64,000 bases of DNA from an uncultured Chthonomonadaceae bacterium (GTDB lineage Bacteria; Armatimonadota; Chthonomonadetes; Chthonomonadales; Chthonomonadaceae), in contig CAWIEK010000016.1 of assembly GCA_963835065.1 (NCBI GenBank), positions 120,329 through 184,328 on the forward strand. Direction: 5' to 3'. Positions 5 to 60,818 of this stretch are shown one piece after another. The notes under the pieces were generated by a model. That model ran no database searches and was not told where the DNA came from. It worked only from the letters and a program-made list of their open reading frames with translations. The translations under genes were made by a program, and so were the position numbers. Each line of letters opens with the position of its first letter. The stretch's first letter is position 1.

Positions 5-1276
5 GTGATCGCGCAGGTATGGCAAAAGGGCGACTTAAACCGCGCGCTGGCCGCCGTGTTTCCCAACAACAGCCGCCCCGACCTGAACACGCCCCTGCCG
101 CAGCAAATCGCTGGCGTTCCTATTCTGGAGTCCGCGACGGTATGGGTGGGCGACAACCGATTGGAACCTGACGCCACCGGCGTGTATCACACCGACGCCA
201 AGCAGGTCAGTCTGAAATGCGCCTTCCGCCCGTCGAGTTCGCCAATCACCGCGCAGGCAGCGCTTAACCATGCCAATGGCAAGCCGTTTGCGCTTGTTAT
301 CAGAAAAAGTTTAGAGCAGGGACTCATCCCCCGGCAATCTACGGAACAGACGCTGGATGTTCCCAGTCTGGATGCCGGCCTGAACACCATTCGCATCTAT
401 GCGCAGAACGACAGCGGCATCAGCGATAATTCAGTGCGCGTGGAGCGCATCGCTTCTGCGCAACCGCAAACCCTGCGCGTACTGGCGGTAGGCATCAGCG
501 AGTACAACGACCCCGGTCTGCGCCTGCAGTACGCCCATAAGGACGCGGAGGCAATACGGGACTTTTTCCAAAGCAATGCGCAAGCCGGCGGCAAAAAGCT
601 GTTCGATGACGTGAAAACCGTTCTGGTAACAAATCAGGACGCCACGCGGAAAAACATCGAAAGCAAAATGGAAGATTTGCTGAAAGATGAGAAGCCGGAG
701 GATACCGTTCTGCTGTACTTTTCCTGTCATGGCTTTGACGCGGAGGGCAGGGAGGGCAAGACCTACTACCTGGCTCCCGCCGATGTCGCGGTCAAGCATA
801 CGCAGGGCGGCAGGAACACGATTCAAAACGGCTACGCCTGGAAGGACATTCTGGCGCGGCTGGCGAATGTGAAGGCGAAGCACATCATTGTGATGGTGGA
901 CCATTGCTTTGCCGGCGGCGTCAGCGAAACCCTGAATGACCCGCGCTTCCTCCTGGACAATGAGGACTTCAAGGATCAGAACGAAACCTTGCGCGAACTG
1001 CGGCAAAACAACATCCTGGTTTTCACCGCGTCTGCGGCCACAGAGTACAGTTACGAAGACAAAAATCGCGAACACGGCGCGTTCACGGCTTCCGTTCTGG
1101 ACGCCCTGCAAGGCAAGATGGATGCGGTTCTGTACCCAGACAATCTAGCACAGTTGAACGCGCTGGACTTCTGGGTTCCGCAGCAGGTGTCCGCCAACTT
1201 CAGTTCGCAGCATCCCGGCCTGTTCGCCCTGCCGAATGCCGACAAAGCGGTTCCACTGGCAGTGATTAGGCATTAG
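5..1276 (+). CDS. Caspase-like peptidase C14 domain protein (C-terminal part; probably starts before the window)
   Basis: LAVGISEY strand, FSCHG (His) and VDHCFAG (Cys) dyad, EHGAFT motif; stop codon lies in a (GGCATTA)n repeat. Confidence 0.85.
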   Translation: MIAQVWQKGDLNRALAAVFPNNSRPDLNTPLPQQIAGVPILESATVWVGDNRLEPDATGVYHTDAKQVSLKCAFRPSSSPITAQAALNHANGKPFALVIRKSLEQGLIPRQSTEQTLDVPSLDAGLNTIRIYAQNDSGISDNSVRVERIASAQPQTLRVLAVGISEYNDPGLRLQYAHKDAEAIRDFFQSNAQAGGKKLFDDVKTVLVTNQDATRKNIESKMEDLLKDEKPEDTVLLYFSCHGFDAEGREGKTYYLAPADVAVKHTQGGRNTIQNGYAWKDILARLANVKAKHIIVMVDHCFAGGVSETLNDPRFLLDNEDFKDQNETLRELRQNNILVFTASAATEYSYEDKNREHGAFTASVLDALQGKMDAVLYPDNLAQLNALDFWVPQQVSANFSSQHPGLFALPNADKAVPLAVIRH

Positions 1277-1362
1277 GCATTAGGCATTAGGCATTAGAGA
1301 AGAGAGAAGAGATATTCAGCTAGGTATAAGGGTACATCACCTAATGCCTAATGCCTAATGCC
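1265..1362. repeat. Inverted heptamer array (GGCATTA)n-(AGAAGAG)n ... (TAATGCC)n
   Basis: Read directly; outer arms are reverse complements. Confidence 0.95.
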
Positions 1363-1379
1363 TTCCCGAAGGAGTACCA

Positions 1380-3998: not shown

Positions 3999-4158
3999 GC
4001 AGGGAATTAGCCGCGAATGAACGCGAATGAACGCGAATGGTTCATCATGAGGAAACCCCCGTAATGTGAGTATCTCGTCACCGGTGAGTTGTCCTACGAC
4101 GCTCACCGGAAAACCAGTCAAAGAATATAATTGGTTCAAGCGGGGTTTTAGAAAGATA

Positions 4159-4962
4159 ATGCGAATGGCGTTGATGGCGGCGCAGGCAATTGATTTTGGC
4201 GGGGAATGGCACACGCGTATGGTGGTTGCTTCCGATGCTGCCGATGCCGGGGCTATTCTGGATGCGCTTGGTTTGGAGTTGCCGGACGCCGTACTGATGA
4301 TTTTTGGCGGCGCGGCCCACATGGAAACGGGATTGGAAACGGAGATTGCGGCGGCGTTTCGCAATTCTATTTTGCCCATTGTCGCCGCCTGCAACGCCCT
4401 GATTATAGATGGCGGGACGCAGGCGGGCATTATGGAGATCGTAGGCGCATTGGGCGCGGAAGGTACGCCGCGCCCGATTATGCTTGGCGTGGCTCCCCTG
4501 GGCGCGGTGACGTTTCCCGGCAAGGCGCAAATGGCGGACGTTCATGGTTTTGCCGCTGTGCCGGAAGCGGAAATCGGTGGTCTTGCCCCACTCGATCCCA
4601 ATCATTCCCACTTCGCGCTGACGCCCACAACCGAATGGGGCAGCGAAACGGCAACCATGTTCCAACTGGCCGTCGCGCTTTCAAAGCGGGAAGCCAAACC
4701 GCGCCCCCTCGCCGCGCTGCTGTTTAACGGCGGCATGATCGCCAAACAGGAAGCCCTGCAATGTATACGGCAGGGCTGGCCCCTCATCGCGCTGCAGGGA
4801 ACCGGGCGGCTGGCCGACCAGATCGCGCAGGCCAAATCACAGCAACCCCTCACGCCCGAAGATACCGAACTGGCCGAAATCGTCACAAGCGATAGGCTGA
4901 AGGTGGTTTCCCTTGCCGATGTTGCCGACGCGCTGGGGGAGGCATTAGATATTAGATATTAG
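4159..4962 (+). CDS. SLOG-superfamily protein, TRPM-like prokaryotic LSDAT type (start uncertain, 4066-4174)
   Basis: IFGGA, IDGGTQAGIM, LDPNHSHF, WGSET, NGG, GTGRLAD motifs. Confidence 0.85.
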   Translation: MRMALMAAQAIDFGGEWHTRMVVASDAADAGAILDALGLELPDAVLMIFGGAAHMETGLETEIAAAFRNSILPIVAACNALIIDGGTQAGIMEIVGALGAEGTPRPIMLGVAPLGAVTFPGKAQMADVHGFAAVPEAEIGGLAPLDPNHSHFALTPTTEWGSETATMFQLAVALSKREAKPRPLAALLFNGGMIAKQEALQCIRQGWPLIALQGTGRLADQIAQAKSQQPLTPEDTELAEIVTSDRLKVVSLADVADALGEALDIRY

Positions 4963-5058
4963 GCAGAAGAGGGAACAGGGAACAGGAGAGGATGCCCTAT
5001 CAACTATCATCTATCAACTATCAACTCCTGATTCATCCTTCATCCCTCATCCTCATCC
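4943..5058. repeat. Composite heptamer array ATATTAG/GGGAACA ... CTATCAA/TTCATCC
   Basis: Read directly; closely similar to the array at 31864-32012. Confidence 0.95.
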
Positions 5059-10001: not shown

Positions 10002-10054
10002 TCAGTGGGTGTTGGGTATCGTGTGTCGTGTGTTGGGGCAGAAGGCCACGCCGC

Positions 10055-13039: not shown

Positions 13040-13140
13040 CAGTAAACGCGAAACTTCAAGCCGCATCCTGACAGCGCCAAGCAATTAATAGTTGATAGAG
13101 GCGCAGAGACTATCAACTATCAACCATCAACTGCTTGAAA

Positions 13141-14485: not shown

Positions 14486-17400
14486 TCAGCGCGCTTCTTC
14501 CTTTGTTTCCTCATCCCGGATACTGATGCGCTCCTCGTTGGACAGCGCGCGAACGTCCGGCGCGTACATGGCGTAGCTGTTGGCGGGCAGGGCATGGAAC
14601 GCGCCCGGAGTTTCCGCCCGCAGCCGGTACGTCAGCACGCGCCTTCCCTGCGGCAGTTGCGAGATGAAAAACGCCACTTTCTGATCCCGCAATTCCATAT
14701 TCGCGTACAGCCCCTGCCCCGCGTGTTCCCCGCTGCGCACTTCTACGGGTTCGCATCCCGCCGGCTTGATGTCTTCCAGCAGCACGTAATCATAATCGTT
14801 CTTAGCCTCCAGCCCCAACTCCACTTCCAGCAGGTCGCCACTGTTCAGCAGTTCTCCCGGCGCAAGCGCAACCCGCGTATACACCGGCCCCTGCTCCGTC
14901 CCTTCCTCCCGCACAACCACAATCCCCGCGTCCAGCAACGCATAATCTCCGGTGAGGAAAGCGTTAAGTGTTGAGCGTTGAGCGTTGAGGGAATTGCCGA
15001 TTGCCGATTGGGGTTTTACTGTTCCCTGTTCCCTGTTCCCTGTTCCCTGTTCTGTCTCCTCTTCTCCTTTTCTTCTCTTCTTCTCTTCTTCCCCTCCCCC
15101 CGCCGTGCCCGCAATCAGGCGGAAGTAGCGGCGCGATACGGCGATTTCGTTGCCGGCTGCCGGAATGGGTTCTTCCTGTGAGAAGGTGCGCGTGGTCGCC
15201 GTGTAGTAACAGGTTCCGGCTCCCTGCCGCGTAATGGTCACGGTTTGGTCACCGGTTTGCAGCAGCGCGTCGGGTACAACGAAAGTATTGTCGAAGAACA
15301 GCGCGTTGGCATGGTTGACGCGGTACGTCCGCTTGATTTTGTCGCCCATGCTGACCGTCAGCGTGTAATCGGGAGCCAGTTCCTTTTTAACACGCATCCA
15401 ATCGGCCAGCGCGTTCACGGCAAGGGCGGTATCCCGCGTGTCGCGCCAGATGCTCCCCTGCCGGTTGTTGACCAGCCACTTGACCAGCATCGGCGGCAGT
15501 CGCGCCATTGGGCGCAATCGCCATGTACGCCTGCAAAATCGTCGCGTTGGTTTCGATCTTGTTGTTGTACCAGCGCCACCACTGCCCCTCGCTGTCGTCC
15601 CAATTGGCCGTGCCGTTCGCCGCGTCCGTATGCACGGTGTTTTCCAGATTGCGCAGCACGATCCGCGCCTGCTCGTCCTTGCCCGTGTCGTGCAGGGCAA
15701 GCGCTAGCAGCGCCTTGCCATACGCGCTGCAGTTTTTCGCGCTGCGGGAACAGTTTGCCTTGAACGCGGTTCTTCAACGCAGGCCGCATTTCAGGAATCA
15801 ACGCAAGCACCCGCGCCTGATACGCCATCTGGTGCAGATCGGTTTCCTCCAAAAACCGCGCCTTCAAGTACGTTTCGCCACGTTCGAGTTCATTCCCCGG
15901 CGTCACATAGCCCGCCTTCTGCCCCATCAGCAGCCCGTACACGACATACGCGGTCATGTAGGCGTCACTGGTATCGTCCTTCCACCAGCCCCAGCCGCCG
16001 TCCCGGTGCTGCATATCGCGCAGCCGCGCCAGCCCGTCCTTCACCATGCGGTTCAGTTCCGCGCCGTTGAAAACCGGATTGTTCAGGCGGGGCGCGGCGT
16101 AGTACGCATACTGTGTCGTGTTCAGGTTCGGCTTGCCGGTCGGATTGGCTGTGGGATAGGTGTACGGGCTGTTTTCCGTTACCTGCTTCGGGCCGTTCGC
16201 CGCGTTTGCCAATGCCGCTTTCCGCCGCGCCGTCGCTCCCTTTTCCAGATCGCTCAGATTATAACCCGTGTCTTTCAGCGTTTGCGCCACGATCACCGAT
16301 GGTATGAACCGCGACAGGGTTTGCTCCACGCAGCCATACGGATAATCCGCCAGATACGGCAGGGCGTCCAGCATCACGCCCGCAAGCGAGGGATTGAGCG
16401 TCACGACAACCTGCGAACTGCCCGCCTTCCGCGCTTCCGGCAGGTTAATCGTCACCTGCGCGGGCAGCGTATTCCCCGCTTTCATCACGCCGCTTTGCTG
16501 CGTCTGCCGCTCCACGCCATGCACAAGGACGGGTATAACCGTTTCCGTCGCATCCCCCTGCGTGGTAGACTGCGCCGTCATCTGCGCATGAATGACGCCC
16601 TCCATCTTGGGCCGAACCAGCCAATCCACGCGCTGCTGTCCGTTCTTCGGGATCGTCACCCAGGTCTCATTGGTACGCGGGTGTCGGGTGTTGGGTGTTG
16701 GGTGTTGGGTGTTAGGCAAATCCGCCAACGTTTGTGTCTGCTGCGAACCCGCCTGCTGAACGTCAGTCTTCCCCAACACCCCATCCCCAACACCCGACAC
16801 CCCTTCCTTATCCTCCCCCACCACATCCGCGTTATCCAGATCGAGTTTCACGCGGATACGGGCGTCCTGCTCCGTGTCGTTGTGAACAACCGCGCTCAGG
16901 GTGGCGATGTCGCGCTCCACGAGGAAACGGGGCGCTTCCAACTGTACCAGCACGTCCTTCTTCGTCGTCACCCGCGTTTCGCCCGTGCCAACCTGCGCGG
17001 CCTGCGTACTGCCGATTGCCACCGCCCGCCACTGCGTCAGGTTGTCCGGCCATTTTACGCTCACAGTTGCCTGTCCCTGCGCATCCGTCACCACCGCCGG
17101 CGTCCAAAACGCCGTATCCCGGAAGTTGGAGCGCATCGTCGCCTGAGCCAGTTCCCCACTCGCCAGCCGTATTGGTTGAACGCTGTCAAACACATGGGGA
17201 TCTGGAACCTTCCTCCAAGTTACTTTGGATGGATCGAGCGCGCGTTTGCCCGTAGCCGTGACCATCCCTGCCGCATCCACATACATCGCGCCTTTTTCAT
17301 CGACCGCCCCGTTATGGGAAATGTTAATGTTGCCGTTCACGAACATGCGCCCTCCCGAACCCGGCATACCGGACGGCGCGGAGAAAGCAGGCGTTAAGCG

Positions 17401-20400
17401 ACTTTCATACACGCCTGCGGACATGCCGCCGGCGTCCACTTCATAATACAGGTTGTTGCCACCGAGTCCGCCCTTACCTCCGCCTCCCACACTTCTTCTT
17501 GCGAGGAACCGTTCATGTCCGTGATGTACCCCGTAGCCGAACAGTCCGTACATCGCTTCGGGTGAAACCGGGATTTGCCCCATGTCTTGTGGGAGCGGGA
17601 GCGGATGACGCGCATATTCCTTGAACGGCTGCGCCCATCCCTCAATGGTTTCAAAGCCATTGTCAAACGAGCCGTTCATCTGGATGCTGTTGCTGCGCTG
17701 GCTGCCGTAGAACGTTGTCCGTATGTCGGGCGCGTAATCTTTCTGGATGTAGCTCAAGGCGGCGTCGGCAATGGCAAGGCTGAATTGCGCGCGCAGAGGT
17801 TTGCCCCGGTAGTCCAGCGCCTGCACGTTCAGTTTGGCTGTTTCGCCGGGCTGATAACGCGCCTTGTCCGCCGTCACCTTGACCAGCGCCGTCTGCTGCA
17901 CGGGCGGCACGAACAACTCCTGCGACGCCTGAAACATCGCTCCATCCCGCACCATCACGGCGGACACGAACACATTGGGCGCGTCCCGGCGCGTCAGGGG
18001 AATGGGCAGTTCCAGACTGCGACCCGCCACCCGGACAACGCGCTTGTCGAGTATCTGCCCTTCCACTTCCCGCGTCAGCAGCACGGCGCAATTGGGCTGC
18101 GGGCGTGACCAGCAGGACGCGGGCGGTTTGCCCTGCCGCATAGTACGGATTCTTTATCGCCAGAAACACGCCCTGAAACAAAAACCGCTTTTCGCGCAGT
18201 TCCGGCCCGTCCACCCACACATCTTCGCCCTTCGACACCAATTTGCCATCCCCATCCGTCGTTTCATACGCGATGCGGAAAAACCCGGACGTGTTCGCCT
18301 TCCATTCGATCATCGCCCGTCCCTGCGCGTCCGTGTTCAGGGGAAAGGACGTGACGAGTGTTTCCTTGCCGTTCGGATCGTTGGGCTTGCGGAAGACCCG
18401 CGCCGTGCCATGCGCGGCAACCGGCTGATCGGACGGGTTGAGCGTTTTCACTTCCACGTCTACCCGGTCGCCCTGCGTGGCATAGCCATGCGCGAAGTTG
18501 AGGAACACGGCCACGTCATGCTCGGTTGCTTTCAGCGCCCCCGATCCCGAAATAGTCCGGCGGCTCTGATCCTGCACATCCGCTTCCACCGTAAAACTCA
18601 GGTCGCTGCTTCCCCCGTTCGCCGCGTTCGTTTTCGTCTCAAACGTGACCGTCGCATCCCCCTTTGCGTCCAAAACAGCCTTGCCCTGCGTAATCACCTC
18701 GCCATTGCGGTAGTTCGTGTCATAACTGCCCGCATTATCCCCCGCATGGTACAGGTAATCGTAAGGCTCCGGGAACCGATAGGAGGGGCTGTACGCCGTC
18801 CGATACACCCGGTACGTCACCTTCGCGCCCGGAACCGGCCCGCCGAAGTAGTACGCCGCATGGATTTTCGCGCTCGTCGGCTGCCCCAACTTCACCCGCT
18901 CCGCAGACGGCGTGACCGTCACCTCGAACTCCGGCTTCTTATACTCCTCCACCCGAAACCAACTCCCCGCCGTCTCAACCCCAACCTCTTCTCTCTTCCT
19001 GTTCCCTGTCCCCTGTCCCCTGTCCCCTGTCCCCTGTCCCCTGTTCCCTGTCCCCTGTTCCCTGTCCCCTGTTCCCTCCCCTGATGAGCGTTACCGCCAT
19101 CGAATACTCGCCCAAAGCCGCATGAACGGGCAGAATGAACGAGCCGGACACGCTGCCAAATTCCGAGCAGGGCGTCCGCTGCTTGTAAATCAGATTGCCC
19201 TGCGGGTCCGTCACCACAACGCGGGCAATGGCATCCGTGACGGGTTTCAAGTCGCCGATGTTGCCCTTAGCGGCGTTTTCGCGCCGCATCAGCAATTGCC
19301 GGAAATGCACGGCCTGCGCCGGTCGGTAAACCGTTCTGTCCGTGACTCCATACCCCTGATAGCCCGCCTGCCCGAAGTAGCCGCTTGCATTGGTATAGGT
19401 GAGCGGCGTCACGGCGTACTGATTGCCCCGGCTGCCGAGCGCGGCGATTTGAACCTGCCCTTCATTGGGCGCGCGATGCAGGGGAATGGAAACCACGCCG
19501 TTCGCGTCGGTCACGCCCCTTACCAGCGCGGAGAACTCTTTCTCGCCCTCCGACCACCATTGCTTTGTCAGCACCCCGATGCCCGCAAGCGGCTTGCCCG
19601 AAATGGCATCGGCGGCGTAATACAGTGTGCGGCCCCGATCCATCTTCTGCACCAGCGCGAGATCGGAAACCGTGACCACCGCGCCCGTCGTCATTCCCGG
19701 CACAGACGCCACTACGACATACGCGCCCGCGTCATGCAGGGGCGTGACGATGTTTTGGGCATGGCCGCGCAGGGGCGTCACATCTTTGGGCGTAGTCGTC
19801 CATGCCGCAACGCGAACCGCGCCAAGTGCCCTTAGCGCCTGCTGTTGCGTTTTGGTGTTTTGAAGCAGCGAGGAAACCCGCAGCCATTGGCTGTTATCGG
19901 CGTTGCTGACCGGTTTTCCTGCCGGGGCGTCGCTGCGCCATATTGCAGCAGATCAAAGCGGTATGCCTCGAACCGAATTTTCGTCACGTTGCCGTAATTA
20001 ACCGCCAGCTTGAGGGCATTGCCCGGACGCGGCGTTCCCACAGCCGACAGCGACACGGACGGACGGCGCAGATCGGCAAGCTGCCCCCGCGCATCCGAAA
20101 CCCACTTGCTGTGCGGGCGAGCCGCAATCAACTGCTGTAATGCCGCGATCCCCTGTTCTAATTTGCCTTCCTGCATCAGCCAGGTCGCGCGTAAATACTG
20201 CGCTTCATCGCGCAGGCTGTCGTTGGGATAGGCGCGAACCAGCGCGTCCAGCATACTCCCCGGTTTCAATTCCTGATACGGAAACGGGATACGAACGGGC
20301 TTGTCATGCTCGAACTTCACGGCAATGTTCGTCATTTGGGCCTGATACTGCCGCAGCCACAGCGCCTGCGCAAACAGCGCGACGGCATGAGGATGCGCCG

Positions 20401-38852: not shown

Positions 38853-38977
38853 GGGTTCAGAGGTGTTCAGGTATTCAGGTATTCGGATATTCAGGTGTTC
38901 TGTATTGATATGACTTGGTAATAGTCTACAGTGTGTAGAAAATAACTATTCCTGAACACCCGAACACCTGAATACCA
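38853..38977. repeat. Inverted octamer array (GGTRTTCA)n ... (YGAAYACC)n
   Basis: Read directly, between sigma and anti-sigma genes. Confidence 0.9.
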
Positions 38978-40223: not shown

Positions 40224-41654
40224 ATGAAAGGAAAGGCAGACGACATGAAACGAACGAGAATTGGCTGGATGGGACTGGCGATGCTGCTTTCGGGTGGGGC
40301 GATGGCTTCGCCGCCGGATGCGAACCGCGCCGGGGAGCCATTTATTGTACATGAGTGGGGAACCCTGCTCACCATGAACGGCTCGGATGGCGTTGTGCTG
40401 GACAGCATGTACCATGAGGAACATTCGCTGCCCGATTTTGTTCACGCGCTCACGCAGGATCAACTGTACCCGCCCGAAGCGCTGTTCAAGTTCGAGACGC
40501 CGGTGATCTATTTTTATACTGACCGTCCGCGCAGCGTGGATGTCACCGTGAAATTCCTGACAGGCATCTGGACGCACTGGTTCCCGCAGGCCGAAATCGC
40601 GCGCAACTTCATGGCAAAACCGGACGCGAACCCGCCCGCAAAACCCTTTACCTTTTCAACAGGAAAGGAGCCAATTCGCCGGGGAACCCTGCGCTGGAAA
40701 GCGGAACTTCTGCCGCCGACTTCCGCGCTGGAAAGCCTGCTCCCGTACACGTCCGGCGACTCGCTGTGGAACTTTGCGCGGCAAGTGGATGCGGCCTTCG
40801 TCCGCACCGCGCCCAACAGAACTGATGCGCAAGCGAGAAACAGGTCAAAATCACGTACCATCACAGAAGCCGATTTGAACCCGCAATCACCACTCGAAAA
40901 TCGGCAATCGAAAATCGGCAATCAGCAATCGGCAATCAATCCCAACGGGCTGGAAACCGAGCGCTATCTGTTTTATCGGGGCCTGGGAACCGCCCATCTG
41001 CCCCTGCAAGTGAACGCAAGCAACGGCGGAACACTGTCGCTGCCCTCGAATGGCGGCGTCACGCTGACACACCTGTTCGTGCTGCGCGTGGAAAACGGCA
41101 AAGGCGCGTTCCGCTACATTCCCGCCCTCAAACCCGGCGAAAAGCTGGATCACGCGCTGCCGGATACGAGTGCCGCCGAATCTCTGCCCGCTTTTACTTC
41201 CCATGTGAGTGACGCCCTTGCGGCAAAATTGGAAGCAAGCGGCCTGTATGCGAAAGAAGCGCGGGCAATGGTAAACACCTGGCGCAGCAGCTACTTCCAA
41301 TCCAATGGCGTTCGGGTGCTGTACGTGCTGCCGCAAACCTGGACGGAAGCGTTCATCCCGATGCAAATCACGCCCACTCCCGACCGGCTGGTGCGCGTCA
41401 TGGTGGGCCGCACGGAACTGCTCACGCCCGACCGGGAACAGCAAATCACGCAGGCCGTCCGCGCCTGGGCCGGTCCGAACCCCGCACTGCATAACGACGC
41501 GCTCCAAACGCTCCACGCGCAGGGCCGCTATCTCCAGCCTATCCTCCGCCGCCTGCTGCGCACGACGCCGGATGCAGCGGTCAAAGCCAACTGCCGCGCC
41601 CTCCTGCAAACCGCCTGGGTCAACGTCCTCGCCCCCACCGCGCTGACGAAATAA
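40224..41654 (+). CDS. Secreted conserved hypothetical protein with repeat-derived insertion
   Basis: Signal peptide; VHEWGT, ETPVIYFY, LFYRG, GLYAKEARAM motifs. Confidence 0.8.
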   Translation: MKGKADDMKRTRIGWMGLAMLLSGGAMASPPDANRAGEPFIVHEWGTLLTMNGSDGVVLDSMYHEEHSLPDFVHALTQDQLYPPEALFKFETPVIYFYTDRPRSVDVTVKFLTGIWTHWFPQAEIARNFMAKPDANPPAKPFTFSTGKEPIRRGTLRWKAELLPPTSALESLLPYTSGDSLWNFARQVDAAFVRTAPNRTDAQARNRSKSRTITEADLNPQSPLENRQSKIGNQQSAINPNGLETERYLFYRGLGTAHLPLQVNASNGGTLSLPSNGGVTLTHLFVLRVENGKGAFRYIPALKPGEKLDHALPDTSAAESLPAFTSHVSDALAAKLEASGLYAKEARAMVNTWRSSYFQSNGVRVLYVLPQTWTEAFIPMQITPTPDRLVRVMVGRTELLTPDREQQITQAVRAWAGPNPALHNDALQTLHAQGRYLQPILRRLLRTTPDAAVKANCRALLQTAWVNVLAPTALTK

Positions 41655-41655: not shown

Positions 41656-41907
41656 CCACGGGGAACACGGAGGACACGGGGAGGGAAAAGGGGAGAAGAA
41701 ATACGTATCACGGATGAAACGGATGAAACGGATGAAACAGATTGACGCGGATAACAGGAAAGCCTCTGATTTGATCCGTGTACATCCGTTTCATCCGAGG
41801 TACGTACTTCTCTCCTGTTCTCTTTTCTAATTCTTCTCCGTGTTCTCCGTGCCCTCCGTGGTTCCCTCTCCCCTTTCCCTCCCCGTGTTCCCCGTGTTCC
41901 CCGTGGT
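41656..41907. repeat. Nested inverted nonamer arrays
   Basis: CACGGRGRA outer and CGGATGAAA inner left arms with matching reverse-complement right arms. Confidence 0.9.
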
Positions 41908-42002
41908 TTCTCCTGTTTTTGGCGGTGTACTCCTTCCGGCGGGTATAATAGAGTGGTTGGAAATTGACTGTGCTGGAGAGGAGCGAGAACTTGAGCGATA
42001 CC

Positions 42003-44994
42003 ATGACACCGGATGCGCGGCCCGCGGCGGCAACCCCCGACGCGCTGCACCTGCCTGGCCTGGCCGAACCCGTCAGCCCGTTTGTCGGCAGGCATATTGG
42101 CCCGCGCCAGCGCGATATTCAGGCGATGCTTGCGACTTTGGGCGTGGATAGCCTGCAGGAACTGATTGAGCAGACCATTCCCCATCAGATATTACCGAAC
42201 GGCAATCCCGTTTTTGGAAAATTAACACAGGTCGGTGAGGGCTGCACGGAAGCCGAAATGCTGGCGCACCTGCGCGAACTGGCGGATCAAAACCAGATAT
42301 GTAAATCCTATATCGGCATGGGCTATTCGGACTGCATCACGCCGCCCGTGATTTTGCGCAACCTGCTGGAAGACCCGCGCTGGTACACGCCCTACACGCC
42401 CTATCAGGCGGAAATATCGCAGGGGCGACTGGAATCCCTGCTCAACTTCCAGACCATGATTCTGGATTTAACGGGCATGGAAATCGCCAACGCCAGCCTG
42501 CTTGATGAGGGAACGGCGGCAGCGGAAGCCATGCACATGGCGTGGGGCATCAAGGGCGCGGAAGGCAAGGCGTTTTTCATGGCGCGGGACTGCCATCCGC
42601 AAACCCTGGCCGTCGTGCAGTCCCGCGCCGAGCCGCTGGGCATCGAAATTGTGGTCGGCGATCCGCTTACGTTCGGGTTTGACCGCCCCCTTTTCGGCGC
42701 GTTGCTGCAATACCCGGCAACCGACGGCATCATTCACGATTACCGCGCCTTTGTGGAAAAAGCGCACAGTGCCAACGCGCTTGTCGTTGTCGCCGCCGAT
42801 TTGTTGAGCCTGACGCTGATTACGCCGCCCGGTGAGTGGGACGCGGATATTGTTGTCGGCAGCGCGCAGCGTTTCGGCGTCCCGATGGGTTACGGCGGGC
42901 CTCACGCGGCCTTTTTCGCCACGCGGGATACCTACAAGCGCAACATTCCGGGGCGGCTTGTCGGCGTCTCCCGTGACGCGGAAGGCCGACAGGCTGTGCG
43001 CCTGACCCTGCAAACCCGCGAACAGCACATCCGCCGCGACAAGGCCACGAGCAACATTTGCACCGCGCAAGCCCTGCTCGCCAACGTCGCGGCCATGTAC
43101 GCCGTGTATCACGGGCCGGAGGGCTTACGCAGTATCGCTCGGCATGTTCATTTTCTCGCTGCCCAGTTCGCCAACCGCTTGAAGGGATTGGGCTACGTAA
43201 TCAGTGACGAGCCATTTTTTGATACCGTCCGCGTACCGCTCGGCAAACACTCACTGAAAGGAATACTCGAACGCGCCGAAATGATGAGCGTTAATCTGCG
43301 CGTTCTCAACGAGACCACGCTGGTCGTTTCTCTCGACGAAACCACTGCGCCGGATGATGTGAAAATACTTATCAACATCTTTGATCAAGACAACGACGAG
43401 TGGATACTTGACAATAACCAGCCTGCCAGCGTTGAAGATATTCGAGCGGGTGAAAATCGAAAATCGAAAATCGAAAATCGAAAATCAGCTTTCCTGACGC
43501 ATCCGGTTTTCCACAAGTACCGCTCGGAACTGGAAATGCAGCGGTACTTGAACAAGCTGGCGAACCGGGACTTCACGCTGTCCAACGGCATGATTCCGCT
43601 CGGCTCGTGTACCATGAAATTAAACGCGGCGGTAGAAATGATCCCCATAACATGGCCCGAATTTGGGAAGATTCATCCGTATGCGCCGGACGAGCAGGCG
43701 CAGGGGTATCTCGCCCTGATTCATACGCTGGAAACCATGCTGTGCGACATTACCGGGTTTGCCGCCGTGTCCTTGCAGCCTAACGCCGGTTCGCAGGGCG
43801 AGTATGCGGGACTGTTGGCGATCCGCAAGTACCATCAGGCGCGGGGCGAAGCGAAGCGCAACGTGTGCCTGATTCCCCATTCCGCGCACGGCACAAACCC
43901 CGCTTCGGCGGTCATGACCGGCATGAAAGTGGTCGTCGTGAACACGGATGAAGCGGGCAACATTGACGTGGCGGATTTACGCGCCAAAGCCGAACAGCAC
44001 AGCGCCGATCTGTCCGCCCTGATGATAACTTACCCGTCCACGCACGGCGTTTTCGAGGAATCCATCGTCGAAATCTGCGACATCATTCACCGGAATGGCG
44101 GGCAGGTGTACATGGACGGCGCGAACATGAACGCGATGGTCGGGCTGTGCCGCCCCGGCGACTTCGGCCCGGACGTGTGCCACCTCAACCTGCACAAAAC
44201 GTTCTGCATCCCGCACGGCGGCGGCGGTCCCGGCGTCGGTCCCATCGGCGTCGCCGCGCACCTCGCGCCGTATCTCCCGGCAAAAGTTGATAGATAAGAA
44301 GTTGATAGTTGATAGTCAAGACCCGAATTCCTATCAACTATCAACTATCAACTATCAACTCCTCGTCAGCGCCTCCCCCTACGGCAGCGCCAGCATCCTG
44401 CCGATTTCGTATGCCTATATTCGATTGATGGGCGCGGAAGGGATGAAGCGGGCTACCGAAATCGCCATTTGCAACGCCAATTACATTGCTCGGCGCTTGG
44501 ACGAGCATTTCCCCGTCTTGTATCGGGGTAAAAACGGACTGGTGGCGCACGAGTGTATTCTGGATTTGCGGCCCGTGCAGGCAAGCGCGGGGATCACGGT
44601 TGAGGATGTCGCCAAACGCCTGATGGACTTCGGGTTTCATCCGCCGACGGTTTCGTGGCCGGTCAATGGAACCATGATGATCGAGCCGACAGAAAGCGAG
44701 TCGAAGGAAGAACTGGACCATTTCTGCGACGCGCTGATCGCCATACGGCAGGAGATACGCGAAATAGAGGAAGGGCGCGCGGACAAAGCCAACAATCCGT
44801 TGAAACACGCGCCGCACACGGCAGAACAGGTTTCGCGCACGGAATGGAACCATCCGTACAGCCGGGAACAGGCCGCGTACCCCCTGCCCTACCTGCGCGA
44901 CAACAAATACTGGCCGCCCGTCGCCCGCATAGACAACGTGTTTGGCGACCGCAACGTCGTCTGCGCCTGCCCGTCCATTGACGAGTACAAGTAG
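42003..44994 (+). CDS. gcvP: Glycine dehydrogenase (decarboxylating), frameshift near 44285
   Basis: [55 protein letters not shown]. Confidence 0.97.
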
Positions 44995-44995
44995 C

Positions 44996-45064
44996 AAGGG
45001 AAGAGGGAAGAGGGAAAAGTACGTAACAATCTCGCTTTTCCCTTTTCCCTCTTCCCTCTTCCTT
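44996..45064. repeat. Inverted heptamer array (AGGGAAG)n ... (CTTCCCT)n between convergent genes
   Basis: Read directly. Confidence 0.9.
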
Positions 45065-45730: not shown

Positions 45731-48700
45731 ATGACTTCTTCGACATCTATTCGGATACATGCTTACTCCCATCTACGCTGGTGTCTGCGCTTGGCGGGCG
45801 TCGTGCTTCCTATCGCGCTGCTGTCGGGTTCCGCGTTGGCGCGGCGGCAAGCGCCCGCGCAGGATGCTGTCTGGCTGGAAGGCGAAGGGTTTACGGCTTC
45901 CAACATTGCTAAACCCAACATTAGCGGATGGGGGCATCCTGAGTGGCTGTCGGGGGAGAAGTGGCTGCAAGTGTCGGTTGACGCCGACAAGGTGGAGAAA
46001 GAACTGCCTGCCGGGGGCGGGCTGCTGACGTATGCCTTTAATGTCGGCCACGCGCATGAGTACGAAGTGTGGAACCGCATCGGCTACGAGTTCGTGCGTT
46101 CGCCGTTTCAATGGCGCATAGACAACGCCGACCTGGCAAACCATATCGCCCGAACAGCGCACTACCGACCTGATGGAATTGCAGGACTGGAACGAAGTGG
46201 CCTGGCTGAAAATGGGAACGCAACCCCTGACACCCGGTCCGCACATACTAGAAATCCGCCTGCCGCAACTCAAAGACGACAAGGGCCAACCCGCCCGCGT
46301 CCTTTACGCTTCCGACGCCCTCTGCCTCTACCCCGGTCACTTCGCCCCCAATGGCCGCAACAAGCCCGGAACCAACCCGCGCACAAAGGCGGATGAGGAA
46401 GCGGCGCAGAAGGTGTTCAGATTGGCAGAGGGAACAGGGAACAGGGAACAGGGAACAGTAGGAACCAATTCATCACTCATCACTCATTATTCATCACTTC
46501 CCCTATCCGGTCTTTGGGAAATCTGCCGCAACGATGAGGATTTGCCCACTGAAGTGGCCGCGCCGATCAAGGATTTTCCTGCCGAGCCGCACTGGTCCGC
46601 CATTCAGGTTCCCGGCGATAGGAATACGCTGCGGCCTGATTTGCTGATGGCGCACCGGGTCTGGTATCGGACGCGGGTTGAGGTTCCCGCCGACGTTATC
46701 AGGCAAAACGGCGGACGCTCGTTTCAGATCGTGTTTCCGCAGAACAACTTGAACACGACGGTTTATGTCAACGGCGTGTACTGCGGCTTTAATAAGAACC
46801 CGTATGCGCGATTTGCCATTGACGTGACGCCGGGTATCAAGGCGGGCGTGAATGAAATATGGGTGGGAATCAAGGACGCCTGGTACGGCTATTCCGCCAA
46901 TCCCAAAAACCCGATGAAATTGCGCAAGGTGTTCAATCTGCCGCTCAGTTTCACGCACAACGGCTTTCAGGATTTGGCGTATCCCATCTGGAACGGCTTT
47001 TATTCGGGTATTTTGGGAACGCCGGAATTCAAAGTCAGCGGTTCGAGCTACGCTTCCGATGTGTTTGTGCGCCCGTCCGTGAGCAAGAAGCAGTTGGCGG
47101 TAGATGTGACGCTGAAAAACGCCACGAATGCAGACGCGGCGGGCGAAATCGTGTGCGAGGCCGTGAACGCGAAAACCGGCAAAGTGGAAAAAACGTTGGG
47201 AGCGAAGCCGTATACCATTGGCGGCAATTCGGAGCAGACTGTCACGCTTTCCGAAGCGTGGGAAAACCCGGCGTTGTGGTGGCCCGGTACAAATCCCGAC
47301 TATGTACGCGCTGCGAACTACCATCAAGCAGGGCGGCAAGGCCATAGACGTATCGGAAACGCCGTTTGGGTTTCGGGAATGGGGCGCGAAGGGCCGGGAT
47401 TTCACGCTCAACGGCATCATCTGGCATGGATGGGCGGACTTGCAGCCGGGAGCCACACCGCAGGAGTTCCTCGCCAACTACCGCGCTACCAACCAGAAAG
47501 ATATGCGCTACATGGGCGTGTCGCAGAACGGCGTCAATTGGATGGGTCTTGAACCAACCGCTGCGCTGAACTTTTTCGACCAGAACGGCGTGGTTGTGCG
47601 ACGGTGCGGACCACTCGACGGCGAAGCCATCGGCTACAACGCCAGTGGAAAACGATCCCGATTTGAAGGCGCTGTATAAATCCGACATCAAAATGGACTT
47701 GATGCAGAACTGGCGCGACCAGATGGTGCAGCAGGTGAAGGGCGAGCGCAATCACCCGTCCGTGATGCTGTGGTCACTGGAAAACGAGTGGCTGTACATC
47801 AACTGCATCAACCTGTACGGCGGCCTGATGGATCAATTTGAGGCCGAAGTCAAGAAGTGTTCGGACGCGGTACAGCAAGCCGACCCGACGCGCCTGACCA
47901 TGACGGATGGCGGCGGCGCGAACAAGGATCAGTCCATGCCCGTGCATGGCAACCACTACGTTTTCGACCTCAACGGCAAATACCCCGATCTCGCGTATGA
48001 CCTAAACCCCACAGGCGGCGGCAGAGGACGCTGGATATGGGACGAAAAACGCCCCCGCTTCATCGGTGAAGATTATTTCGCAACGGGAATCAACCCCTTC
48101 GATTACGCTTATTTCGGCGGCGAGGAAACCTTCGGCGGCAAAGCGCAATCTCATGGCGCAATGGCGCTCGTTTTCCGCATGTTGACCGAAGGCTACCGAT
48201 GGGCCGGACAAAGCGCCTGGCATCACTGGGTCGGCCCGGACGATATGGACGCTTTCAAGGGAACAGGGAACAGGGAACAGGGAACAGGGGAAGAAGAGAA
48301 GAGGAGAAAAGAAGAAGAGAAGACTGGAAACCCGACACCCGACACCCGACACCCAACACCCTACCTTTCGCAGTCGCCCCGCGCCGTATTCTGCCGACAG
48401 TGGGATTGGACGTTTGGGAGCGGGCAGAAGGTGAAACGGACATTGGGGATTTTCAATGACACGCATGACCCGGACCCGATTACCCTGACGTGGACGCTGA
48501 CCCTTGCCGGAAAGAAGGTGCAGACGCAGACGAGTACGCACACCGTTGCGCCGGGTGGCAATGAAAAGTTCGATGTGACGCTGGACATGCCCGTTGTCAA
48601 TGCGCGAACCGAAGGAACCTGGACGCTGACGCTCACGGAAGACGGCAAGCAGGCGTTTCAGGACAGCAAAGCGGTTTCAGTGTTGAACGCGCGCCCCCGT

Positions 48701-51005
48701 CCGCAGTCCGCGCAGGCGGAGGGGTTGGGGAAGCTTAGTGCGAAGAACCTGTTCGTGTATGACCCGAATGGAAGTGTGGGCGCGTTCCTGAAATCCAATG
48801 GGCTGGCGTTCACATCCCTGGCGAGTTTGAAAACCCTGCCGGACAGCGGCGCGGGTGCTGGTGGTTGGACGGGACGCGCTGGATGTGACGGAGAGTACGT
48901 CGAGCCGATTGGCGGCGTATGCGAGCGAGGGCAGAACCGTCCTTGTCCTTGAGCAGAAGAACCCGCTCAAATACACCGCGCTTCCGGCGGAAATGGAACC
49001 CGCCACGAATGAAGGCCGCACCGCCTTTGCCGAAGACCTTGACCATCCCGTGTTTGCCGGTTTGCGGCAGAAGGACTTTTTCACGTGGGGCAGTGACGAA
49101 GTGGTGTACCGCAACGCCTACCAGAAGCCCTCGCGTGGCGGCAAATCCCTCGTTCAGTGCGATATGCGCCTTGCCGATACCGCCCTTGCGGAAATCCCGA
49201 CGGGAACCGGCCTGCTGCTTGTCAGCCAATTGTGCATCGGCGAAAAATTAGCTAACAATGCCACCGCGCAGCAATTGCTCCTCAACCTGCTGGCGTATGG
49301 GGCGCAGTACAAACTCACGTATCGCCCCGTAACCGCCGTCATCAGCGACGCCCCCCTGCTCGGCAGCGCCTTAGACGCCATCAGCCTGAGCTACGCCAAA
49401 TCCGACAATCCCCTTGCCGCGCTTTCGCCCAACAACCAGTCACCGGCCACCAGTCACCAGCCACGTATCGCGCTTATTGAAGCCACGCCCGCCAATTTGA
49501 AGGTTCTGGCGGAAAATACGGGCAAGGTGAGCGCGTTTACGGGCGCGGGCGGCTGGCTGTTTTTGCATGGCCTGACGCCGGAAGGACTGGCTGATTACAA
49601 CAAAATCGTCGGCGTGGAGCATTTGATACGCCCCTTCTGGCGGGAGCGGGTTGCGTTTCCCGCGCAGAAATCCCCGCTTGCGGCGGGACTGACGACGGGC
49701 GACATCGTGATGCGTTCGGGCAAGAAGATGTTCAACTACAACTCCGATGAGTGGGTCGCGGACGACGTGTTTACGTACTGCGTGGATTACGACGACGTGG
49801 CTCCGTTCGGCAAGTTCGCCAACGACTTCCACCGCAACATGGTCAACGGCATGGTGTCCGCGGACGGCTGGCCCTACATCATAGACCTGCCGCAGAAGGA
49901 CGCGACGTTCCCGATTCAGTTTCCCAAAACGCAAACCATTACGCATTTGCGCTGGATCGGCAACCGTATGTACAATCCGCCGACCCGAATCGCGCTTGCG
50001 GCGGACAATGGGCAGGCGATGCCGATAGACGTGAAGCCTACCGACCAGCCACAGGAATTCGACTTATCCACGCCCCTGACCGGCAAGGATATAACGCTGA
50101 AGATTACCGATGTGGAGCGCGTCAAGGATACGGAAATTACCGGCCTGGACAATATCTCGCTGATCGCAAAGCGGCCTGTGGATTTTTACCAAAAGGTGAA
50201 GCCGCTCGTGAACGTGGGCGCAATCATGGCGTATCCGCGTGGGACAGGCGGCATTTTGCTGTGCAACCTGAAATTGCAGGCCAGCGAAGCGGTTCCCGAA
50301 AATGGGGTGAAGAAGCGGACGATCCTTGCCACCCTGCTGCGCAACCTGAAAGCGCCGTTTGCGGGCAAAACCGTGATTGCGGGCGCGAAACTGGCGTACC
50401 AATCCATTGACATCGGCAAATTCGCCAATCAGTACCGGGATGAGCGGGGCTGGTTCGGGGATAAGCAGCGCACGTTTGCCGGGCTGCCGACCGGAAAACA
50501 AACCTTCGGCAACGTGCCGTACCAAATCTATGACTTTCCCACGTCGCCCGTTCCCACCGCCATTATGCTCGGCGGTTCGGGCGTTCCCAACAACATTGCG
50601 GAAGCCGTGAAGAGCATCCCCGTTGGACGCAAAGCCGACGCGCTGTTTTTCCTCCAAACCGCGCGCATAGACAACCCATTAAACGATCAGGAACGGCGCG
50701 AAAAGAAACAGGTGGAATTGTTCAAGTACATCATCCACTACGCGGACGGGCAGACAATCGAAGCGCCGCAGTTTGAGGATATAGACGTCGCCAATTACGC
50801 GCAGGCCGTGCCCCTGCCCCTCCCCGGCGCGCAGATCGCCTGGACGCGCAAGTACGACAACGGAGCCGAAACCGCCGTCGCCTACTCCAAACAATGGAAC
50901 AACCCGCGCCCCAACATAGCGATTGAAAGCATAGATGTCGTCTACGGCAAAGACCGGCGCGGCGTCCCTGCCGTCCTCGCCATTACCGCTGCCACCGCGC
51001 AATGA
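45731..51005 (+). CDS. Large secreted GH2-like glycoside hydrolase, split over four ORFs by frameshifts
   Basis: Signal peptide, WYRT, VYVNG, LWWP, FGFREW, ERNHPSVMLWSLENE; three repeat-derived insertions. Confidence 0.85.
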
Positions 51006-55553: not shown

Positions 55554-55823
55554 GTACATACCAGTCTACTAATGATCTGCGAACTAGCCAGGTGGCGGGA
55601 CGTTGAACGATCATAGTTCCTATCAACTATCAACTAAATCAAAAACCTATCAACTAACCCAGAAGGGAGGCGCTGGAAGATGCCTGTATTTTCCTCCCGT
55701 TCGCCCTGACGCTGCTGAGGTCACGACGCCTCTAACTCTACAACTTGACACAACGAGACATCGGGCTGGAAGCGCTGCATTGCCAAGATTTCGACGATCT
55801 CTCTACATACTCTTTTTCTTTTT
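55554..55823 (+). ncRNA. Candidate sRNA/leader RNA copy 2
   Basis: See copy 1. Confidence 0.55.
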
Positions 55824-58798: not shown

Positions 58799-60141
58799 AC
58801 GGTCTCCTTGCTTTGCAGTGGCAGGCGCAGGAGAAATGTCGTGCCTTTGCCCACCTGGGTATCGAATGAAATCTGCCCGCCGTGTTTTTCCACAATGATC
58901 GAGTGCGCCAGGGAAAGCCCCTGCCCGGTTCCCCTGCCCACTTCTTTGGTCGTATAGAACGGATCGAAGATGCGTGAGCGGGCGGCTTCCGGGATACCGG
59001 TTCCCGTGTCCGTGATACGAATTTCCGCCCAATCGCCTATCCGGCAGGTGCTGAGGGTAATCAGACCCTTTTCGCCGCTGTCTTTCACCACATCGGCAAT
59101 CGCGTGGGCGGCATTGATCACCAGGTTGAGGATCACCTGACTCAAATCTCCGGGCAGGCAGGGAACCGGGGGTAAATCGGCGTCGAATTCGGTGACAACA
59201 TCGGCGGTATACTTCCACTCGTTGCGGGCGACGGTGAGCGTACTGTCAATCGCGCGATTAATGTCCAGGGGCGTTTTCTCAATTGTTCCCGGATGCGAAA
59301 ACTGCTTCATCGCCTGCACGATATGGGACACGCGGGACACGCCATCCAGCGACTGCGCAAGGGCTTTGGGCATTTCTTCGAGCAGATAATCCAGATCGGC
59401 TTCCTCCACGGCGGCTTCCACTTTCGCCGCCACTTCGCTAGGCGTCGCGCCCAAACCATTTCCAAGAAGCATCTGCCGCAAAGCCGCCTGCAGGTCGCGC
59501 AATGCGGCAAACCCCTCTTCCAGAAAGCGCACGTTGTCGCCGATGTACTGAATGGGCGTATTGATTTCGTGGGCGATTCCTGCCGCAAGCTGCCCGATGC
59601 TTTCCATCTTCTGCGCGTGAACCAGTTGCCTTTCCAGCAGTTTGCGCTCCGTAACATCCGCTCCCAACAGCAAAAAGCCCAGAAACTCTTCCTCTGCTCC
59701 TGTGAGCGGCGTCAGCGTCAGGCCGAGAAATCCTTCCGAACCATCCGGGCGCGTGAACGGCACATCGTCTAACCGCACCGGCAGCAGGCTGGACCGGCAC
59801 TCCTGTAAACCCGCCACGATGCGTTCCCAACGCCAGGAAGTTGGCAACTGTTCCAATCGCTGCCCGACAACCTGTGCAGTGGACAGGCCGGAAATGGTTT
59901 CGGCAGCCGGGTTCCACTGCGTAATGATGTGCGTGTCGCTGACGCAAATGAGAATGGAAGGCAGGGCGGCCAGCAGCGCGCTTTTGGCCTGGCTTTCCAA
60001 TTTCGCCGCCGCCATCAGTTCATTGGCGCGTTCAATCGCTTCCTGAAGGTCACGGTGATAAGCGTTCGGAATCCCGGCGGCAGCCGATTCCGAAGCGGCC
60101 TCAGCCCAGGACCCGGCTTCTTGTGTAACTACGTTTTCCAC
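58780..60141 (-). CDS. PAS-domain sensor histidine kinase
   Basis: AHEINTP, NLVINA, DTGTGI, FYTTK, GTGQGL; GGAGG RBS before GTG. Confidence 0.92.
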   Translation of the reverse strand: MENVVTQEAGSWAEAASESAAAGIPNAYHRDLQEAIERANELMAAAKLESQAKSALLAALPSILICVSDTHIITQWNPAAETISGLSTAQVVGQRLEQLPTSWRWERIVAGLQECRSSLLPVRLDDVPFTRPDGSEGFLGLTLTPLTGAEEEFLGFLLLGADVTERKLLERQLVHAQKMESIGQLAAGIAHEINTPIQYIGDNVRFLEEGFAALRDLQAALRQMLLGNGLGATPSEVAAKVEAAVEEADLDYLLEEMPKALAQSLDGVSRVSHIVQAMKQFSHPGTIEKTPLDINRAIDSTLTVARNEWKYTADVVTEFDADLPPVPCLPGDLSQVILNLVINAAHAIADVVKDSGEKGLITLSTCRIGDWAEIRITDTGTGIPEAARSRIFDPFYTTKEVGRGTGQGLSLAHSIIVEKHGGQISFDTQVGKGTTFLLRLPLQSKETVCRKAA

Positions 60142-60245
60142 GAATCGCCTCCATTGGCAGAAAAGAACAATAACAGCATTTACCGCGCCGTAAGAAAACA
60201 CCCAACCACCCGAACACCGAACACCGAATACCGAATACCGAACAC

Positions 60246-60818
60246 CTATAACGCGCATCCAAAAACCGGCGCATGGGACAGCGGGGCGCGTTCCGAGGTG
60301 AGCAGGGACAGGCAGGCGGCGCGTCCGGCATTGTCGCCCTCATGGCCGCGCCGGCCCGTAATGCCGCCCTGAAACAGCAGTTTTCCCGACGCATTATAAA
60401 GCAGCGTTTCGCCGGACGTATGCGCGTGGAAACGCTCCGCTTCGTGTCCGTCCACATCTCGGAGCGGCGTAACGCCCGGTATACAAGCGGCGCGATTCCA
60501 CAGATCGGTTTGCGTCCATTCCTGCCCCTCAGATTGCGGCGCAACAAACAGGACAAACGCGCGTACCCGAACTGGACACTGCGCCATCAGCCGCGCCAGT
60601 TCCGCAAGGCTGGCGCGGGTACACGGGCAGCGCGGATGCGCCAGCATCACCAGCGTGGCAAAGTGTTCTGTGCGCGGTATTCGGCTATCCACAGGCCAAT
60701 TGGCGGCAGGCGCGGCAGCCACGCCCGGCGTATTTTCATAGCGTTCCAGGCAGGACATTCCCAACACCAGCGCAAGCAGCCAGAGGATCAATAGGATCGG
60801 AAAATAAATACGGGACAT
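60246..60818 (-). CDS. RedB-like thioredoxin-fold membrane-anchored protein
   Basis: HPRCPCTRASL, GGITGRRGHEGDN, PVFGC. Confidence 0.7.
   Translation of the reverse strand: MSRIYFPILLILWLLALVLGMSCLERYENTPGVAAAPAANWPVDSRIPRTEHFATLVMLAHPRCPCTRASLAELARLMAQCPVRVRAFVLFVAPQSEGQEWTQTDLWNRAACIPGVTPLRDVDGHEAERFHAHTSGETLLYNASGKLLFQGGITGRRGHEGDNAGRAACLSLLTSERAPLSHAPVFGCAL

Follow-up and report, generated by a model that had tools for sequence, protein, structure and literature searches.

The 64,000-nucleotide stretch analysed here (the window, G000:C16:120329-184328) belongs to an 8.0-Mb, 92%-complete assembly of an uncultured Chthonomonadaceae bacterium (G000, 57% GC) and carries numerous short tandem arrays. 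These arrays are the arms of inverted-repeat elements of ~70-150 bp, each consisting of a G/purine arm, a loop, and a C/pyrimidine arm. In a congener (G002, 7.5 Mb), 80 of 106 orthologous sites also have arms, and their flanks are conserved, but the unit is mostly another one and the loop hardly related; 17 of the 106 are empty, and no target duplication was seen there. It is this observation that is new. The heptamer feature is real and genome-wide, a kind of small repeat element with unexplained renewal. The gene-less elements share their arms with cassettes bearing four-helix-bundle and GxxExxY genes, and it is likely that they are renewed in place.

All 1046 two-armed sites of G000 were compared with 1.2 Mb of G002, and both flanks align at 109 of them (mean identity 83%), or at 106 after 3 duplicates are dropped. 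In G002 these 106 orthologous sites are two-armed (57), one-armed (23), empty (17), or unclear (9). The conserved flanks end a median of 4.5-6.5 bases from the arms, and the units of the two species lie within one edit of each other in 15 of 65 G arms and 10 of 71 C arms (3 when permuted), with a leftover of the other species' unit at 7 of 56 and 4 of 56 sites. At about 10 sites where G000 has GTAGTCA, the unit of its cassette L001, the unit in G002 is GTAGATRG, that of the G002 four-helix-bundle cassette L138, which is the commonest G002 occupant where G000 has GTAGTCA. At junctions of ribosomal-protein operons congeners differ in the units of both arms, some junctions are empty, and the rplF-rplR junction holds three units in three species. 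When the comparison is reversed, none of the 19 symmetric G002 elements (both arms of the same unit) with an orthologous G000 site finds that site empty.

An arm comprises about four units of 7-10 bases. Among arms with at least three units, four is the number in 188 of 231 GGGAACA-type, 79 of 117 AAGGATG-type, and 81 of 119 AGTAGTC-type arms, and at least five are found in 12, 0, and 3, respectively. Arms end in a fixed phase, and unit variants are position-specific: AGGTGTC takes the innermost place in 87 of 127 arms and the fourth in 19 of 97. Same-unit pairs enclose a loop of 50-70 bp in 187 of 308 cases, and different-unit pairs (hybrids) a junction of <20 bp in 151 of 290. The 77 GTAGTCA elements share one common loop ancestor, their loops averaging 68% identity to the consensus and their arms being 96% pure. 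Such capped arms, positional variants, and shared loops bear the stamp of blocks copied from templates; slippage or processive addition would not leave it. [quoted passage not shown] The motif AATGC occurs within 16 bases inside the arm (mostly 1-2 bases away) at 5 times background in 11 of 35 families; it is not enriched outside the clade, in other phyla (3 of 65 upstream regions vs 4 of 65 controls), and is therefore local.

As for the loops, base retention in the GTAGTCA family, with 14 of the 77 loops below 60% to consensus left out, is 0.73 for A, 0.63 for C, 0.69 for G, and 0.76 for T, and C>T and G>A changes dominate. The absence of adenine-specific changes from this spectrum led to the rejection of mutagenic copying of the diversity-generating retroelement (DGR) type. 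A further candidate, the loop as a deleted cassette gene, was dropped after the GTAGTCA loop family showed no likeness by eye to the interior of cassette L001.

The earlier note on this window, made by a model from the letters alone, had reported about 25 array loci, and for 25 of the 26 coordinates Tandem Repeats Finder reports an array on the spot or no more than ~20 bp away. It finds none at 51010, and those at 10006 and in the G arm at 13089 are weak (<2.5 copies). Perfect 7-mer arrays with 3 or more copies number 16 in the window, vs 0 in each of 200 triplet shuffles. The genome-wide scan proposed in the note returns 1330 7-mer arrays (at least 3 copies), 123 8-mer, 31 5-mer, and 32 6-mer arrays, so that the strong, mainly intergenic excess of 7-base tandem units known from heptamer long simple-sequence repeats (LSSR) and cyanobacterial short tandemly repeated repetitive sequences (STRR) is found here as well (1330 vs 31 and 32). 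The many unit families described also hold, with 25 of 107 heptamer families accounting for 87% of the 7-mer arrays. Because of these many families, and because the ancestral flanks at empty sites match the unit by 2-5 bases only, slippage alone is insufficient, as had been argued.

The G/purine arm comes first at 13 of 13 two-armed loci of the window. Among adjacent arrays at most 100 bp apart genome-wide, drawn from 2423 arrays of 7-10-mers, G-then-C order occurs 569 times, C-then-G 8, GG 107, and CC 114; a looser detector (at most 120 bp) gives 1046, 31, 15, and 16, respectively, and the 1.2 Mb of G002 give 49, 0, 7, and 11. The claimed order thus survives, but GAAAATC/AATCGGC (40882, 43452), although purine-rich, act as 3' (C-type) arms. 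That the order appears on either strand, offered as further evidence, adds nothing, since G-then-C is its own reverse complement. The polarity is a fixed layout of inverted arms, and new synthesis is not required for it; for one unit in Xanthomonas it is already in print, in passages of PMC4692102.

The loci of the window are listed below by coordinates and strand (a dot where none is assigned).

1265..1363 (.): symmetric element with AGGCATT arms; 24-bp stem, −44 kcal/mol; between a caspase-domain gene stop and a TIR-NB-ARC-TPR gene start
4012..4039 (+): lone 10-mer G arm of the CGCGAATGAA family
4940..5058 (.): stacked hybrid; G arms AGATATT/AGGCATT and GGGAACA, then C arms CTATCAA and TTCATCC
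10006..10033 (+): weak, degenerate GGGTGTT G arm; an unrelated short palindrome follows
13089..13132 (.): short symmetric GTTGATA/CTATCAA element with a decayed G arm; convergent genes on either side
14960..15091 (−): non-pairing hybrid, in frame in the alpha-2-macroglobulin C-terminal open reading frame (ORF) 14486-15700 (−), bMG10
16678..16802 (−): symmetric GGGTGTT element, in frame in alpha-2-macroglobulin ORF 15415-18141 (−)
18986..19077 (−): long C arm, 11 copies of two variants, at the end of the A2M MG2 ORF 18975-19781 (−); this departs from the four-copy mode
23128..23237 (.): symmetric AGGCATT element with a 55-bp loop
26687..26716 (+): lone 30-nt CTATCAA C arm; another dispersed repeat downstream
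31403..31480 (+): AGAAGAT G arm, 6.7 copies, then a decayed C-rich arm ahead of a start codon
31864..32013 (+): non-pairing stacked hybrid, in frame in glycosyltransferase 31481-32773
37229..37284 (+): degenerate CCAACAC/GAACACC C arm; SpoU methylase gene downstream
38103..38137 (+): G arm of 8-mers, located at the SpoU gene's 3' end
38861..38976 (.): symmetric element of the 8-mer GGTRTTCA, flanked by an ECF sigma and an anti-sigma gene
40894..40938 (+): GAAAATC/AATCGGC arm, in frame in ORF 40224-41654
41656..41910 (.): nested 9-mer elements whose arms are of the kind found at GxxExxY genes
43452..43486 (+): GAAAATC arm, in frame in a GcvP loop; the congener G001 has a different two-armed insert in that loop
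44284..44360 (+): symmetric GTTGATA element, located in another GcvP loop and without stops in the downstream half's frame
44997..45062 (.): symmetric GGGAAGA element; the genes on its two sides converge
46429..46498 (+): non-pairing GGGAACA / TCATCAC hybrid, in frame in GH2 ORF 46173-47552
48258..48361 (+): non-pairing hybrid, in frame in GH2 ORF 47594-48952
49435..49464 (+): degenerate C arm, in frame in ORF 48855-51005
55620..55636 (+): CTATCAA C arm; the repeat at 26717 has its second copy downstream of it
60197..60246 (+): GAACACC C arm

Around these loci several other features were recorded. The segment 44994-45071 is 78 bases long in the window vs 111 in a related-strain contig. Two diverged copies of another dispersed repeat (26717-26880 and 55660-55810) each have a CTATCAA arm on their 5' side and carry a Shine-Dalgarno sequence and a short ORF. 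Short palindromes resembling repetitive extragenic palindromic (REP) sequences, unrelated to the heptamer arms, lie at 10050-10098 and 11599-11625. At 5-6103 caspase-domain, TIR-NB-ARC-TPR, SLOG (LSDAT), and two SLATT-type genes stand in series, with repeat elements at three junctions; this row is likely a defence or conflict cluster. The alpha-2-macroglobulin (14486-21541) and GH2 (46173-51005) genes are split into several ORFs, which suggests indel errors of assembly. The gcvP gene (41964-44994) is split at the element at 44284, whose frame is off by one base relative to the upstream half; an assembly error or a recent frameshift is therefore likelier than a true split; gcvP of G001 is intact, with different two-armed inserts in both corresponding loops.

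Hybrids and symmetric elements differ in where they reside. Called genes contain 117 of 212 hybrids vs 22 of 356 symmetric elements, and 272 of the 356 symmetric elements lie between codirectional genes, ribosomal-protein operons among them. At 14960, 31864, 46430, and 48259, where the earlier note had described arms that cannot pair, the arms do differ, and all four loci turn out to be in-frame protein inserts, hosted by alpha-2-macroglobulin (14960), a glycosyltransferase (31864), and GH2 (46430, 48259). The length difference is a multiple of 3 at 13 of 16 in-gene hybrid sites and at 16 of 19 in-gene orthologous sites. In total, 190 two-armed blocks reside in 171 called genes, an in-frame insertion like that of Rickettsia palindromic elements (RPEs). 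The unit strand found in the coding sense is almost always the stop-free, A-rich one (128 vs 12 for GGGAACA, 0 vs 32 for GGGTGTT), even if neither strand has stops. In-protein hybrids are apparently selected for hydrophilic peptides. With a symmetric element the protein has to take in one T-rich, hydrophobic arm and the mRNA a long stem, and a hybrid can avoid both; selection would therefore keep hybrids in proteins, and the halves of an element would be supplied independently.

That arms flank four-helix-bundle and GxxExxY genes was expected beforehand and then tested on G000. This genome has three four-helix-bundle genes (TIGR02436, of the 23S intervening-sequence (IVS), Avd-like kind) and three GxxExxY nuclease-fold genes (TIGR04256), and 6 of these 6 are preceded by a purine arm and followed by a pyrimidine arm. 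All three TIGR02436 genes lie between protein-coding sequences, not inside 23S rRNA, and none is in the window. Two of the three four-helix-bundle proteins were scanned and are PF05635, the one GxxExxY protein scanned is PF13366 (PD-(D/E)XK), and one four-helix-bundle protein matches PDB 2GSC (Xcc0516, a homopentamer of five chains) with an E value of 9e-19. The likeness to the Avd protein of DGRs is weak (33 and 28 bits, cut-off 80). Some abundant families of G000 equal the cassette arms, namely GTAGTCA, GGGAACA, GAAAAGGA, ACACAGAG, and CACGGRGRA. Among 160 four-helix-bundle loci from other genomes and metagenomes both arms were detected at 69, with the G arm upstream and the C arm downstream at 62 of 69 (4 of 296 control windows). 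Unit distance correlates with protein distance (Spearman 0.36 over 127 loci, 33 of the 160 having been dropped with no arm above threshold; shuffles give 0 ± 0.02, at most 0.04). A phage collection contributed only 5 four-helix-bundle loci. Locus L125 (G005:C1:953939-957250) has a four-helix-bundle gene and long mixed 7-mer arrays with G-type runs also downstream, unlike the usual layout.

The search for cargo between arms listed 23 ORF candidates, with no HMM scan of them, and besides the cassette genes yielded one plausible host gene between matching arms. This 203-aa, host-like gene (G000:C44:505303-506083) is flanked by complementary GAAAAGAAG-type arms and is possibly captured cargo.

No responsible enzyme had been noticed in the window, and indeed no reverse transcriptase (RT), four-helix-bundle, GxxExxY, or Y1-transposase gene is found there, Pfam scans of its 53 ORFs giving no polymerase, transposase, or nuclease family. 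Relatives were sampled at 5-200 kb from 27 genomes, which as kin are not independent. The eight with the highest array density, several of which rest on one or two arrays, have GxxExxY in 8, four-helix-bundle in 6, and RT (RVT_1) in 3 cases, whereas the ten genomes that lack a full-length copy of either gene yield just 4 arrays over 549 kb.

Anatomy and turnover are observed; as for the process behind them, we give about an even chance to break-and-refill, in which a hairpin would be cleaved, lost up to its flanks, and each half copied anew from donors, with a ring protein selecting the arms. An existing element would be cut out to the flanks and the gap refilled by copying other elements. The hairpin or cruciform would be cleaved by the GxxExxY protein with its PD-(D/E)XK fold or by a host structure-specific nuclease, after which each end would prime on a donor arm via 2-5 bases of microhomology and copy the arm and some loop. 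One donor would give a symmetric element with the full ~57-bp loop, and two donors a hybrid with a short junction. The pentameric four-helix-bundle ring is predicted to bind the four-to-five-unit arm and set both unit and length. Selection would then sort the products: symmetric hairpins would persist between co-transcribed genes, and hybrids with two stop-free, A-rich, hydrophilic arms in protein loops. A modular mini-element mobilised in trans, one of the two options raised earlier, fits the homologous loops, the interchangeable halves, the nested inserts, and the gene-bearing versions elsewhere in the genome. From the other option, extension of both ends of a break, the gain by each end of its own G-rich strand fits the hybrids, but a unit-by-unit polymerase is unsupported.

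The wider proposal goes beyond break-and-refill and is tentative, with the balance somewhat against it: a transposase-free class of mobile DNA in which a pentameric, Avd-like ring would read four to five heptamers, the GxxExxY protein would cut the hairpin base, and the ends would be refilled from any donor. If true, a single engine would account for the heptamer repeats of bacteria, for intervening sequences in rRNA, and for protein loops coded by repeats in their hundreds, and fixed genomic slots would be under continual rewriting.

Several observations weigh against renewal by copying and against the part given to the two proteins. Orthologous units are nearer than chance (mean edit 2.3 vs 3.1), and orthologous loops, those <35 bases left out, score 0.27 vs 0.17 ± 0.02 when permuted (24 pairs, two of them clearly homologous). 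Since fourfold sites of G000 and G002 differ by 36%, inherited loops would by our own estimate still score ~0.45-0.9; on these sequence comparisons, whole replacement of loops is favoured over inheritance but not proven, and loops inherited with converted arms are, given that divergence, a less favoured alternative. Only 3 of the 77 GTAGTCA elements have a loop 85-87% like one at a site with different flanks, the 6 closer ones sharing flanks, and fresh copies therefore appear rare. The gene calls come from a rough caller of our own, applied to an assembly with apparent frameshifts. The correlation of unit with protein shows co-descent, not binding, and no cassette was found in the 92%-complete assembly for GTTGATA (250 arrays), GGCATTA (176), or GGATGAA (112). 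In six of the relatives sampled, 14-79 kb contain no array despite a GxxExxY gene, and in G001 arms occur with no four-helix-bundle match. To our knowledge the four-helix bundle has no known catalytic function, and the roles of both proteins are what we infer.

MITE-like mobilisation, in which elements insert with a preference for existing loops and deletions between nested copies produce hybrids and new occupants, is unlikely but accounts for part of the data. The elements at 41656-41910 are nested, and their inner part (41687-41831) is absent from the contig of a ~90% similar strain, which has 8 bases instead; arms are stacked at 4940, 14960, and 31864; and clean empty sites exist. The earlier note had called for empty sites and target duplications in relatives: the 17 empty sites of G002 provide the former, but their 17 alignments show no target duplication by eye, only 2-5-base overlaps of the flank with the first unit at several sites and small filler or deletions. 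In addition, new occupants begin at the old boundary and old arms rarely remain, near-identical copies appear few, and the four Y1_Tnp genes of G000 have no arms within 0.6-0.8 kb. REP sequences and REPINs are GTAG-tagged short palindromes clustered round a Y1 transposase, and with no arms near the four Y1_Tnp matches the elements do not group with REP/REPIN and RAYT. Nor was a transposase partner with matching ends found: the genes between arms are PF05635 and PF13366 (DDE families were not searched).

Host-selected RNA or DNA hairpins offer another explanation, which we consider doubtful. According to it, the sites are ancient, the arms are homogenised by slippage and hairpin-templated conversion, nothing is mobile today, and the units drift to those bound by a resident four-helix-bundle regulator acting in RNase III processing or translation control. 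Occupancy of orthologous gene ends common to both genomes is indeed kept (65/62/26/262, odds ratio 10.6), and so is the symmetry state (35 sites symmetric in both, 16 hybrid in both, 5 mixed). The transition-biased loop changes resemble neutral drift, the prevalence of symmetric elements between codirectional genes, ribosomal-protein operons included, points in the same direction, and comparable regulatory proposals appear in passages of PMC4679880 and PMC2700814. However, drift does not place an identical 30-nt arm, always in the same phase, at >100 unrelated sites. Nor does it account for single sites that switch between 7- and 8-mers, for the lineage specificity of filled and empty sites, or for the ~190 two-armed inserts in called genes.

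A telomerase-like or other templated polymerase that adds units singly to both 3' ends of a break before joining, as suggested earlier, is quite improbable. The geometry fits it, halves can differ, arms start in phase with 2-5 flank bases at several empty sites, and DRT10 is a bacterial enzyme of such a kind (PMC12632851). It is nevertheless disfavoured because arm length is capped, with a mode of four units and a sharp drop above, because non-repeat loops are shared, and because no reverse transcriptase tracks the repeats; position-specific variants and the need for >25 templates count against it too. Rfam gives no match in the window. The two RVT_1 genes of G000 lie on other contigs than the cassettes and belong to other classes than a dedicated RT with a template ncRNA, of which none was found (divergent polymerases were not searched), and neither has an Avd gene beside it as in a DGR. 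Only 3 of the 8 array-densest relatives have RVT_1, and the repeat-bearing G035 (97% complete) has no match to it. The proposed correlation of repeat load with RT does not appear in the family sample, and RT was rejected as the driver.

As for these two genes themselves, one is a stand-alone RT (G000:C49:678900-686000) with cas6/cas2-like and cas1-like ORFs around it, an adjoining CRISPR array, and a ribosomal-protein operon beside it, its CRISPR-linked class being read from this neighbourhood and not by HMM. The other (G000:C50:52482-56034) is retron-like, with retron models as best match, below cut-off; it has a long N-terminal extension, and GTAGTCA elements at the junctions of its operon.

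Finally, the chance of an assembly artefact is practically nil: the apparent frameshifts, by which A2M, GH2, and gcvP are each broken up into several ORFs, would suit it, but independent congener assemblies and contigs of four public runs from four studies have the same architecture, and the inserts keep reading frames.

Heptamer repeats, found in many bacterial genomes, have lacked an explanation since the STRR and long-SSR surveys and are usually credited to polymerase slippage or G-quadruplexes. In G000 and its congener they behave as interchangeable arms of set length whose sites persist, with ties to two large orphan protein families, and point to a source of new protein loops (~170 genes in G000). 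If the mechanism holds, this is a site-rewriting activity with no transposase, and the question is testable with two proteins of 120-130 residues and one 120-bp DNA.

Single-unit versions are already in print for Xanthomonas, Geobacter, and the Coxiella IVS; the literature covered, in which subscription journals and supplements are under-represented, gave no account of same-site replacement of heptamer arms, of hybrid selection, or of a general link to both protein families. The comparisons that follow rest on passages or abstracts of the papers cited. MITEs, ERIC, and RPEs are likewise short non-coding inverted repeats, RPEs being in-frame protein inserts, and RNase III cleavage is reported for Correia elements (PMC10969869); G000 differs in that its arms are tandem repeats, its halves are interchangeable, no target duplication is seen, and the partner genes are not transposases. 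DRT10 also makes tandem-repeat DNA (PMC12632851), whereas the G000 cassettes have no such RT and their arm length is capped. The weak homology of the four-helix-bundle protein to Avd recalls DGRs, with the difference that the G000 loops show no adenine-specific mutagenesis.

The Coxiella 23S rRNA IVS has an S23p (PF05635) ORF between inverted arms, with GACAGAT heptamers upstream and a 28-bp terminal stem; it is cut by RNase III, and the passages, which treat this one element, leave its origin and mobility open (PMC4990558). It resembles the G000 cassettes in its PF05635 ORF between complementary heptamer arms, whereas the latter lie between protein genes and have >1000 gene-less versions with many units. 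The TAACTGA repeats of Beggiatoaceae are C/T-rich and lie just 5' of start codons, also within operons for ribosomal proteins and at the edges of proteins; unlike those of G000, they have one unit, almost no inverted partner in the passages, and a proposed regulatory role (PMC4679880). Geobacter metallireducens has four-heptamer and four-octamer families, in which 7-8-mers stand four or five in tandem, with partners on the opposite strand, both within genes and between them as in G000; they are annotated as putative regulator sites, and the passages draw no link to cassette genes or turnover (PMC2700814). With GGGAATC in Xanthomonas and GGGGA(C/T)T in Nostoc, four units are preferred, 70 and 75 convergent inverted pairs occur, and, as in G000, the G strand follows stops and the C strand precedes starts (PMC4692102). 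There, however, one unit per genome is described and read as G-quadruplexes, whereas G000 has >25 units, most with no three-G runs, together with hybrids and replacement at the same site.

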